Below, one piece after another: positions 34,051-35,935 of a DNA stretch of 64,000 nucleotides. Origin of the DNA: Escherichia coli (lineage in GTDB: Bacteria > Pseudomonadota > Gammaproteobacteria > Enterobacterales > Enterobacteriaceae). A model generated the notes under the pieces. The model was not told where the DNA came from. It was given only the letters and a program-made list of their open reading frames with translations, and did no database searches. The DNA is taken from the NCBI RefSeq assembly GCF_002854065.1, contig NZ_CP024147.1. One strand, 5' to 3'. The number at the start of each line of letters is the position of its first letter. Position 1 is the first letter of the stretch. Made by a program: the position numbers and the translations under genes.

Positions 34051-34076
34051 AAAAAGGGCGAAATGCCCTTTTTTTA
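34051..34076. terminator. Bidirectional intrinsic terminator between convergent maoP and yifB
   Basis: Hairpin AAGGGC GAAAT GCCCTT flanked by an A5 run on the left and a T7 run on the right. Confidence 0.75.
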
Positions 34077-35594
34077 TGTCAGTAGTTTTTGCAGATGGAT
34101 GAGCAAACGGTCAATCGCACGATAGCTAACTGCCTCCTGCAAATGCTGACGTGTGATAATGTCAGACTGATCAATATCAGCAATGGTTCGTGCAACTTTC
34201 AATAACCGCTGCCAGGCACGAATCGATAACCCCAGATGGATCAGCGTTTCTTCCAGCCACTGCGCATCTTCGCTCTCAAGCTTGCAGAATTTGCGTATTT
34301 CCGGACTATCCAGCCAGGCGTTCAACTTATTCTGCCGCTTAAATTGGCGCTCTCTGGCAGCCATTACACGTTGTTTAACGGTGGTGCTGCTTTCTCCCGG
34401 CACTACCGTTTTACTCAAAATGCCGGGGGGTGGTAATGGGATCTCCAGTGAGAGATCGAAGCGGTCGAGAAAGGGCCCCGAGAGCCGGTTGAGATAACGT
34501 AATGTCTGTTCTGGCGTGCAGCGGTTATGGTTTCCCTGATAATGTCCGGTAGGGCTGGGATTCATCGCCGCAACAAGCTGGAAACGGGCTGGATAGGTTA
34601 TTTTTGCTCGTGTGCGTGAAAGATGGATCTGCCCAGATTCAATCGGCTCTCGCAAAGCATCCAGTGTACGCCGTTCAAATTCAGGTAGCTCATCAAGAAA
34701 AAGCACACCGTTATGCGCCAACGAAATTTCACCAGGCCCTGGAATTGCACCACCGCCCACCATCGCAGTTAACGACGCACTGTGATGCGGTGAGCGGAAC
34801 GGGCGCTGCCGCCATTGTTTTTGTACTGATTCAGCATTTACCAGACTTAATATCGCAGCGCTCTCCAGTGCCTCTTCATTGCTTAAATCTGGCAAAAGAC
34901 CATTAATACGGCTGGCGAGCATTGTTTTACCTGTTCCCGGCGGTCCAATCAGTAAAAGGTTGTGCCCACCAGCGGCGGTAATTTCCAGTCCTCGCTTTTC
35001 TTGCTCCTGACCGACAACATCACTGAGATCATGTTGTAGCGCCCGGGATACTGCATCAGTTGGTTTCGGGCGTTCGAGAGTGTGCTTACCTTCCAGAAAC
35101 GCACAGACAGCCTGCAGATGATCGGCTATCAAGCATCCTTCTCCGTTAATTAGCCCCACTTCATCTTCGTTATCTTTCGCGACGATAATTTTTCTGCCCG
35201 ACTTAATAGCTTCAGTTGCACTGGAGATTGCGCCGGGAACGCCATGTAGAGCGCCTGTAAGCGCCAGTTCTCCGACTAATTCATATTCATCTAACTTATT
35301 GGCTGTAAGCTGTTCTGAGGCCGCCAGCAACGCAATGGCGATAGGTAAATCATATCGTCCCCCTTCTTTTGGTAGATCGGCTGGAGCAAGGTTAATGGTG
35401 ATTTTTTTCGCCGGATATTCATATCCGCTATTGATAATGGCGCTGCGCACGCGATCGCGAGCTTCTTTTACCGTTGTTTCTGGTAAGCCCACCATCGTTA
35501 AGCCGGGCAAACCTTTACTGATATGTACCTCAACAGTGATTGGGGGCGCATTTACTCCCAGGGCTGCGCGGGTATGAACAATTGACAGTGACAT
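34074..35594 (-). CDS. yifB: ComM/YifB-family AAA+ ATPase (Mg-chelatase-like)
   Basis: Walker A GPPGTGKT; start placed at MSLSIVHTRAALG (506 aa), the ORF track continues 65 codons further upstream. Confidence 0.85.
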   Translation of the reverse strand: MSLSIVHTRAALGVNAPPITVEVHISKGLPGLTMVGLPETTVKEARDRVRSAIINSGYEYPAKKITINLAPADLPKEGGRYDLPIAIALLAASEQLTANKLDEYELVGELALTGALHGVPGAISSATEAIKSGRKIIVAKDNEDEVGLINGEGCLIADHLQAVCAFLEGKHTLERPKPTDAVSRALQHDLSDVVGQEQEKRGLEITAAGGHNLLLIGPPGTGKTMLASRINGLLPDLSNEEALESAAILSLVNAESVQKQWRQRPFRSPHHSASLTAMVGGGAIPGPGEISLAHNGVLFLDELPEFERRTLDALREPIESGQIHLSRTRAKITYPARFQLVAAMNPSPTGHYQGNHNRCTPEQTLRYLNRLSGPFLDRFDLSLEIPLPPPGILSKTVVPGESSTTVKQRVMAARERQFKRQNKLNAWLDSPEIRKFCKLESEDAQWLEETLIHLGLSIRAWQRLLKVARTIADIDQSDIITRQHLQEAVSYRAIDRLLIHLQKLLT

Positions 35595-35935
35595 AAGCCC
35601 TCCTTGAGTCACCATTATGTGCATAAGATAGCCCGCTAATTCGTGAATTTTAGTGGCTGATTCCTGTTTATTTGTGCAAGTGAAGTTGAGTTGTTCTGGC
35701 GGTGGAATGATGCTCGCAAAAATGCAGCGGACAAAGGATGAACTACGAGGGAGGGAACAACATTCGTACTGAAATTGAATTTTTTTCACTCACTATTTTC
35801 TTTTTAAAAAACAACAATTTCTATTGAAATTATTAAAGCCATCATAAAAAACGGCCAAAAAATATCTTGTGCTATTCGCAAAATCTATGGTAACTCTTTA
35901 GGCATTCCTTCGAACAAGATGCAAGAAAAGACAAA

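Follow-up and report, generated by a model that had tools for sequence, protein, structure and literature searches.

The window, a stretch of 64,000 nt of Escherichia coli DNA, carries yifB on the minus strand, divergent from ilvL. Positions 33600..36200 were found to be 100% identical to E. coli strain 100416 (NZ_CM128593), in which the gene order is hdfR, maoP, yifB, ilvL, ilvX, ilvG; K-12 has the same order, and its yifB likewise encodes a 506-aa protein. The yifB coding sequence (506 aa plus stop) was assigned to 34074..35594 on the minus strand, based on the PGAP annotation of the 100%-identical genome as well as on Pfam, NCBIfam and PDB 8rxd, and the gene for the ilvL leader peptide is located at 35936..36034 on the plus strand. 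An Rfam search placed the ilv leader RNA family RF02744 at 35865..36154 and yielded no match on the yifB strand; a weak Bp1_162 match (34047..34091; E=0.36) was under the gathering score and was taken as chance. The initial annotation of the window had described yifB as a gene for a ComM/Mg-chelatase-like AAA+ ATPase divergent from ilvL, and this description was borne out by domains, profiles and annotation.

In the YifB translation, the Pfam domains PF13541 (Lon-like ChlI; 9.6e-44), PF01078 (Mg_chelatase AAA+; 1.6e-89) and PF13335 (Mg_chelatase_C; 2.1e-30) were found in this order, and the Walker A (GPPGTGKT) and Walker B (VLFLDE) motifs are intact. The same three-domain architecture is common to the YifB/ComM family (NF007365 / TIGR00368; ComM of V. 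cholerae, H. influenzae and L. pneumophila), and the protein sequence shows no departure from the family norm. The NCBIfam equivalog NF007365 ("YifB family Mg chelatase-like AAA ATPase"; curated cut-off 530 bits) was matched with 1137.3 bits, with residues 1-506 of the protein aligned to positions 1-506 of the profile, while the L. pneumophila ComM chain PDB 8rxd_F was matched with E=9.4e-141 (YifB 1-493 vs. chain 1-497), the alignment starting from residue 1. YifB is the E. coli orthologue of ComM, which in competent Gram-negatives is a hexameric AAA+ helicase with a Lon-like N-terminal domain and drives three-strand branch migration during natural transformation; by orthology, YifB would be expected to function as a branch-migration helicase as well. 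The V. cholerae ComM, a hexameric helicase that depends on ATP, has been reported to promote branch migration of transforming DNA (10.1101/147660), and cryo-EM of L. pneumophila ComM has revealed a Lon-like N-terminal domain, an MCM-like AAA+ core and a C-terminal chelatase-type domain (PMC11612176). The description of YifB as poorly characterized, also part of the initial annotation, still holds for its role in E. coli itself but is somewhat dated with regard to the family, given the biochemical and structural characterization of ComM orthologues in these two studies. E. coli is not known to undergo natural transformation in the laboratory, and no natural condition that induces its Sxy regulon is known (PMC3330819).

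Upstream of the annotated start, the yifB frame remains open. A minus-strand open reading frame beginning with GTG spans 34074..35789 and comprises 571 codons, 65 of which are located above the annotated 506-aa YifB. Exactly 65 sense codons separate ATG 35594 from an in-frame TGA (35790..35792, minus strand; read directly from the sequence), and GTG 35789, which directly adjoins this TGA, is the sole distal start codon in the open stretch. The frame had been reported to continue for 65 codons upstream of the conserved start, as the sequence confirms; its reported span is correct in that the open frame is present, but the frame ends at 35789, and position 35935, which had been given as its end, is the last base before ilvL. 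The 65-codon stretch (35595..35789, minus strand) very probably represents non-coding DNA of the yifB promoter and 5' UTR, and its distal end overlaps an AT-rich block upstream of the ilv promoter. When the 571-aa product was scanned with Pfam, the earliest domain started at residue 86, equivalent to residue 21 of the 506-aa protein, and the 65-aa extension peptide did not match any Pfam or NCBIfam family. Composition-matched simulations of the window's 341-nt spacer gave a probability of 0.01-0.03 for at least 65 open codons; the stretch exceeds chance only marginally. A length of 65 open codons is a tail value of the chance distribution and not a conserved property, and at such a frequency many genes of any genome should have an open stretch of this kind by chance.

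A clear signal for translation initiation was identified at ATG 35594, where the sequence reads ...CATAATGGTGACTCAAGGAGGGCTT ATG TCA CTG TCA ATT.... The Shine-Dalgarno (SD) sequence AAGGAGG (35599..35605, minus strand; read from the sequence) is located 4 nt before the ATG, and the anti-SD duplex at this start (-11.9 kcal/mol) is beyond the 1st percentile of a background with a median of -2.5 kcal/mol. Translation of the standard 506-aa YifB would be initiated here, behind the strong AAGGAGG. Anti-SD pairing at GTG 35789 amounts to -0.9 kcal/mol, i.e., this codon has no Shine-Dalgarno sequence. Three further in-frame codons, ATG 35624, ATG 35615 and GTG 35612, lie closer to the annotated start and are conserved within Escherichia; use of one of them would make YifB 6-10 residues longer. 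None of the three shows SD pairing, however (-3.3, -2.5 and +1.8 kcal/mol, respectively), and Citrobacter, Salmonella, Enterobacter and others lack the ATG at -10 codons, while the -7 ATG and the -6 GTG are sporadic in those other genera and many species have a stop within 3-17 codons. In addition, family profiles begin at MSLS, and the current K-12 and PGAP records list a protein of 506 aa. Initiation at any of these nearby codons is consequently regarded as extremely unlikely. The supplements of the published Cappable-seq and SMRT-Cappable-seq studies contained no match for yifB or spacer coordinates, and no yifB or P22787 entry was found in the TRAINSPOTTER N-terminomics supplements.

Conservation of the region was assessed in 80 Enterobacterales loci, ranging from Escherichia to Pantoea, Erwinia and Mixta, in one scan of species-representative genomes. 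The ATG and the N-terminus M[S/T/A]L[S/A].. were kept in all 80 species, and an AGGAG-type Shine-Dalgarno sequence precedes the yifB ATG in nearly all of them, its columns being at least 90% conserved in the 80-species profile. The length of the in-frame open stretch upstream of the ATG ranged from 0 to 72 codons (median 10.5), with at least 60 open codons in 8/80 species and at least 65 in 4/80. Both the 80-species profile and ATG-anchored motif scans revealed short conserved blocks at fixed distances from the ATG, separated by freely varying sequence. Since the position of these blocks relative to the ATG is fixed even where the frame is closed, the conserved patches within the apparent extension represent DNA motifs. 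Two observations had been named in advance as speaking against the extension, an initiation signal only at the internal ATG 35594 and a lack of conservation of the extension, and both were made here.

The origin of the open frame could be traced to a small deletion. A spacer alignment with K-12, E. albertii, E. whittamii and two further Escherichia species showed that 11 nt, CAGCAGCGATA, are missing from the window only; the deletion site is located between GGGCTA and TCTTATGCAC, and the junction of this lineage-specific deletion maps to 35628..35629 on the minus strand in the alignment, with the 11 nt present in K-12 and in all four of the other Escherichia species. As its length of 11 nt is not divisible by 3, the deletion changed which upstream frame is continuous with yifB: a frame without stops, which in nearly all E. 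coli lies in another register, was joined to it. The in-frame open stretch is 22 codons long in K-12 and 11-22 codons long in other Escherichia species. Among 5426 complete E. coli genomes, the undeleted K-12 40-mer was found in 5408 and the 40-mer across the deletion junction in two, strain 100416 and CUWW06. In CUWW06, a run of A8 replaces A7 after the GTG, which places GTG 35789 out of frame and leaves no start codon beyond the -10 codon. The complete extension with a start codon is found in one known complete genome only. The candidate N-terminal extension of the initial annotation is accordingly absent from K-12, from 5408/5426 E. coli genomes and from other Escherichia species, and its counterpart is variable in the 80 Enterobacterales species.

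These data bear on the possibility that a longer, 571-aa YifB proteoform is made in strain 100416 from GTG 35789, on a transcript from a sigma-70-like promoter at 35858..35829. The open frame begins with GTG AAA AAA, and its A/U-rich leader could conceivably allow initiation without a Shine-Dalgarno sequence; moreover, the sequence TTGGCC-18-AATAAT, RpoD-bound according to PMC3946193, is found 40 nt upstream, such that the GTG could sit on a long transcript, and a stop-free run of 65 codons is a little less frequent than the median would lead one to expect (P about 0.01-0.03). Against this proteoform, GTG 35789 has no Shine-Dalgarno sequence, the frame was made by a deletion found in 2/5426 genomes and the GTG is out of frame in the sister genome CUWW06, codon-type constraint is lacking and the N-terminus of the family is fixed at MSLS. 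Synthesis of the 571-aa protein is therefore considered very unlikely; a small residual probability for translation of the extension is retained because the sigma-70-like site, if active, would give a long leader that includes the GTG.

The pattern of substitutions was also compared between the extension and yifB. In the extension frame, the numbers of variable sites at the three codon positions among Escherichia species were 19, 23 and 29 (of 60 each), a flat distribution with a non-significant, hand-calculated chi-square of approximately 2.1, while the first 190 yifB codons showed 15, 8 and 78 variable sites (of 190 each). Compared to K-12, the extension region has 68-77% identity in three other Escherichia species and 95% in a fourth; the yifB coding sequence has 90-91% identity in the three diverged Escherichia species. 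Flat codon positions together with fast divergence are the signature of non-coding DNA. This pattern is also relevant to a second possibility, namely that the upstream frame represents a real uORF or small gene that regulates yifB and was fused to it in the window by the deletion. In K-12, the upstream ORF runs from a GTG to a TAA located about 20 nt before the yifB ATG and has 61 codons, and in each of the five Escherichia sequences examined other than the window, the frame is open over 46-61 codons from the same conserved GTGAAAAAAATTCAATTT. However, besides the flat codon-position variability and fast divergence, both the length and the C-terminus of this ORF vary, and its amino-acid patches VKKIQF, IFAS.IP and NK.ES coincide with DNA motifs that are kept where the frame has stops. 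Among the 50 species with a good TGCGA site, the frame is stop-free for 11-93 codons (median 45). The ORF also has no Shine-Dalgarno sequence, the 65-aa version in the window has no Pfam or NCBIfam match, and the ORF is unannotated in K-12. A regulatory uORF thus appears highly improbable.

Taken together, the most likely interpretation, to which we assign a probability of roughly 0.93, is that the 65-codon extension is a chance frame fusion, which arose from a rare leader deletion in non-coding regulatory DNA and has no biological meaning, and that YifB starts at ATG 35594. The gene itself is already known, and its annotated start (506 aa, ATG 35594) is almost certainly correct. The case resembles other spurious N-terminal ORF extensions in that an open frame is found above a well-supported start and lacks a ribosome binding site, conservation and codon periodicity; it differs from them in that the exact mutational origin, the 11-nt leader deletion, could be pinpointed.

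If the 195 nt at 35595..35789 are non-coding, as proposed, they would represent the yifB promoter and 5' UTR, with a CRP-S-like site and -10-like blocks. The candidate CRP-S-like (Sxy-dependent CRP) site, TGCGA-N6-TTCCA, was identified by phylogenetic footprinting at 35703..35718 on the minus strand. Most genera have it at positions -132..-136 relative to the ATG, the window at -124 owing to the deletion; 50/80 species score at least 9/10, almost all at -132..-136. The half-site columns mostly reach at least 75% conservation in the 80-species profile, and the 6-nt spacer between the half-sites varies. Compared to the core T4G5C6G7A8-N6-T15C16G17C18A19, the window site TGCGA-gcatca-TTCCA matches 5/5 positions on the left, including C6, and 3/5 on the right, without G17. 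The site is similar to the CRP-S promoters described previously (PMC1635313) in its TGCGA with the diagnostic C6, its 6-nt spacer, the presence of a second half-site and its constant position across genera, but differs from them in that the right half-site is TTCCA and not TCGCA (3/5). The gene comM (b3765) has been listed among the CRP-S regulon genes of E. coli and Enterobacteriaceae (Cameron & Redfield 2006, PMC1635313), and Sxy has been reported to induce all E. coli competence-gene homologues (PMC3330819). The putative TGCGA-N6-TTCCA site may correspond to the published comM CRP-S site.

Other conserved blocks were found between this site and the ATG on the minus strand. TAAAAT (35647..35652; C[G/T]TAAA in other genera) is a conserved -10-like block and putative promoter element, and a conserved GGAAT (35660..35664) is located just upstream of it. 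A CATAAT block (35614..35619; CATAAT/CATAGT), which is maintained across genera at -25..-20 relative to the ATG, is possibly a proximal -10 element. If TAAAAT serves as -10, the transcription start site (TSS) would be near 35640 and the center of the CRP-S-like site would fall near -71, in a position of class I type, with GTG 35789 upstream of the transcript. Farther upstream, a consensus scan identified the sigma-70 promoter-like sequence TTGGCC-18-AATAAT (35829..35858, minus strand), which points toward yifB; RpoD genomic-SELEX has entered the hexamers TTGGCC/AATAAT for the yifB/ilvL spacer as an RpoD-bound constitutive promoter (PMC3946193). Several other elements were considered by eye and rejected. 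For a LexA box, only a TTGC-N8-ACAG half-match was seen in E. coli, which Citrobacter and Salmonella do not share. Around GGAAT, neither a sigma-E nor a sigma-54 promoter fits in its spacing and its -10/-12 elements, and GGAAT as a sigma-70 -35 element for TAAAAT would have a spacer of only 6 nt.

At the distal end of the open stretch, the conservation profile revealed an AT-rich block (35775..35813; ...TGTTTTTTAAAAA.AAAATAGTGAGTGAAAAAAATTCAA.), which is conserved across the 80 species and contains GTG 35789. This block would be located approximately 90-130 bp upstream of the presumed TSS of the ilv promoter. No clean match to the exact IHF consensus (WATCAANNNNTTR) was seen in the block by eye. 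A location for the IHF-binding UAS1 of the ilv promoter has been described (PMC10783518), and the AT-rich block was assigned approximately to this UAS1/IHF region by its position from the literature. The distal end of 35595..35789 may hence overlap a conserved block that belongs to the ilv promoter.

With regard to yifB itself, the deletion reduces the distance from the CRP-S-like site to the ATG by 11 nt relative to all other genomes examined (124 nt here, approximately 134 nt otherwise). In RNA folding predictions, the SD accessibility of the leader was 0.58 whether or not the 11 nt were included, and an effect of the deletion on translation therefore cannot be argued from structure. The yifB coding sequence is intact in the deletion lineage and is annotated as a normal gene. 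In this lineage, Sxy-dependent expression of yifB could be affected by the changed distance of the CRP-S-like site from the ATG.

The findings at this locus illustrate that a small indel in a leader can yield a long and misleading in-frame extension, and they confirm the public yifB annotation. Should the upstream sigma-70-like promoter be used and GTG 35789 initiate at a low level after all, strain 100416 would produce small amounts of a 571-aa ComM homologue whose 65-residue N-terminal tail has arisen de novo, and the locus would offer a natural example of an N-terminal extension being born from promoter DNA. As by-products, the comparison provides a clean phylogenetic footprint of the yifB/comM control region across Enterobacterales as well as a natural mutant with an 11-bp change in spacing, a possible tool for studying the Sxy/CRP-dependent control of competence-gene homologues in E. 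coli.

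In E. coli K-12 and four other Escherichia species, the frame upstream of yifB is a separate, unannotated ORF of 46-61 codons, which reads GTG AAA AAA ATT CAA TTT ... TAA and stops roughly 20 nt short of the yifB ATG. In K-12 this ORF (minus strand, 2991..3176 of the K-12 locus, L082) is equivalent to window positions 35629..35789. Both an SD and codon periodicity were looked for in the Escherichia ORF and neither was seen; therefore, it is probably not a gene. At the yifB start itself, RNA folding predicted a hairpin (GGUGAC...GUCACU, window 35580..35613, minus strand) that encloses the yifB SD and AUG. 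The pairing sequence was not found in the Citrobacter yifB leaders compared by eye.

The only other genome found to carry the 11-nt deletion that brings the upstream frame into register with yifB was CUWW06 (L083). Following the GTG, the window has an A7 run (35780..35786) and CUWW06 an A8 run (2181..2188 of L083), a difference that could be a true polymorphism or a homopolymer sequencing error. CUWW06, from wastewater in Thailand, and strain 100416, from human stool in the Gambia, were the genomes nearest to the window. Over the segment 33600..36200, just 7 of the 5425 matching E. coli genomes showed at least 99% identity, with the remainder at 95-99%, which indicates, on sequence identity, that the window is from an uncommon E. 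coli lineage.

On the divergent ilv side, ilvG (window 36174..37820, plus strand) is an intact 548-aa ORF annotated as acetolactate synthase 2 catalytic subunit, whereas the K-12 copy is a pseudogene with a frameshift. Window 35865..36154 (plus strand) strongly matches the Rfam family "Soft rot Enterobacteriaceae Rev 39 5'UTR" (RF02744; 157 bits, E=8e-49). The match spans the ilvL leader and attenuator, which suggests that the family represents the leader of the ilv attenuator.

Many non-Escherichia genera, including Enterobacter, Lelliottia and related genera (L029-L050 and other loci), have a palindrome-like motif just 3' of the CRP-S-like site, at about -115..-100 from the yifB ATG (e.g., ATGTAACGTTTACAT, GTGCAATGATTGCAG and ATGCAACAATTGCAC). 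This motif bears a vague resemblance to a PurR-type box, and Escherichia yifB leaders lack it in this form. The CRP-S-like site itself, TGCGA-N6-TTCCA, lies some 140 nt 5' of the yifB start codon in many genera among the 80 Enterobacterales species loci (L002-L081), at a near-constant spacing of -132..-136. Other conserved leader blocks are GGAAT, C[G/T]TAAA and CATAAT/CATAGT at -25..-20 from the ATG; together with the CRP-S-like motif, this region corresponds to window 35614..35718. The window strain, with the site at -124, is the sole genome seen to depart from this spacing, and such a constant yifB leader length across genera is unusual.
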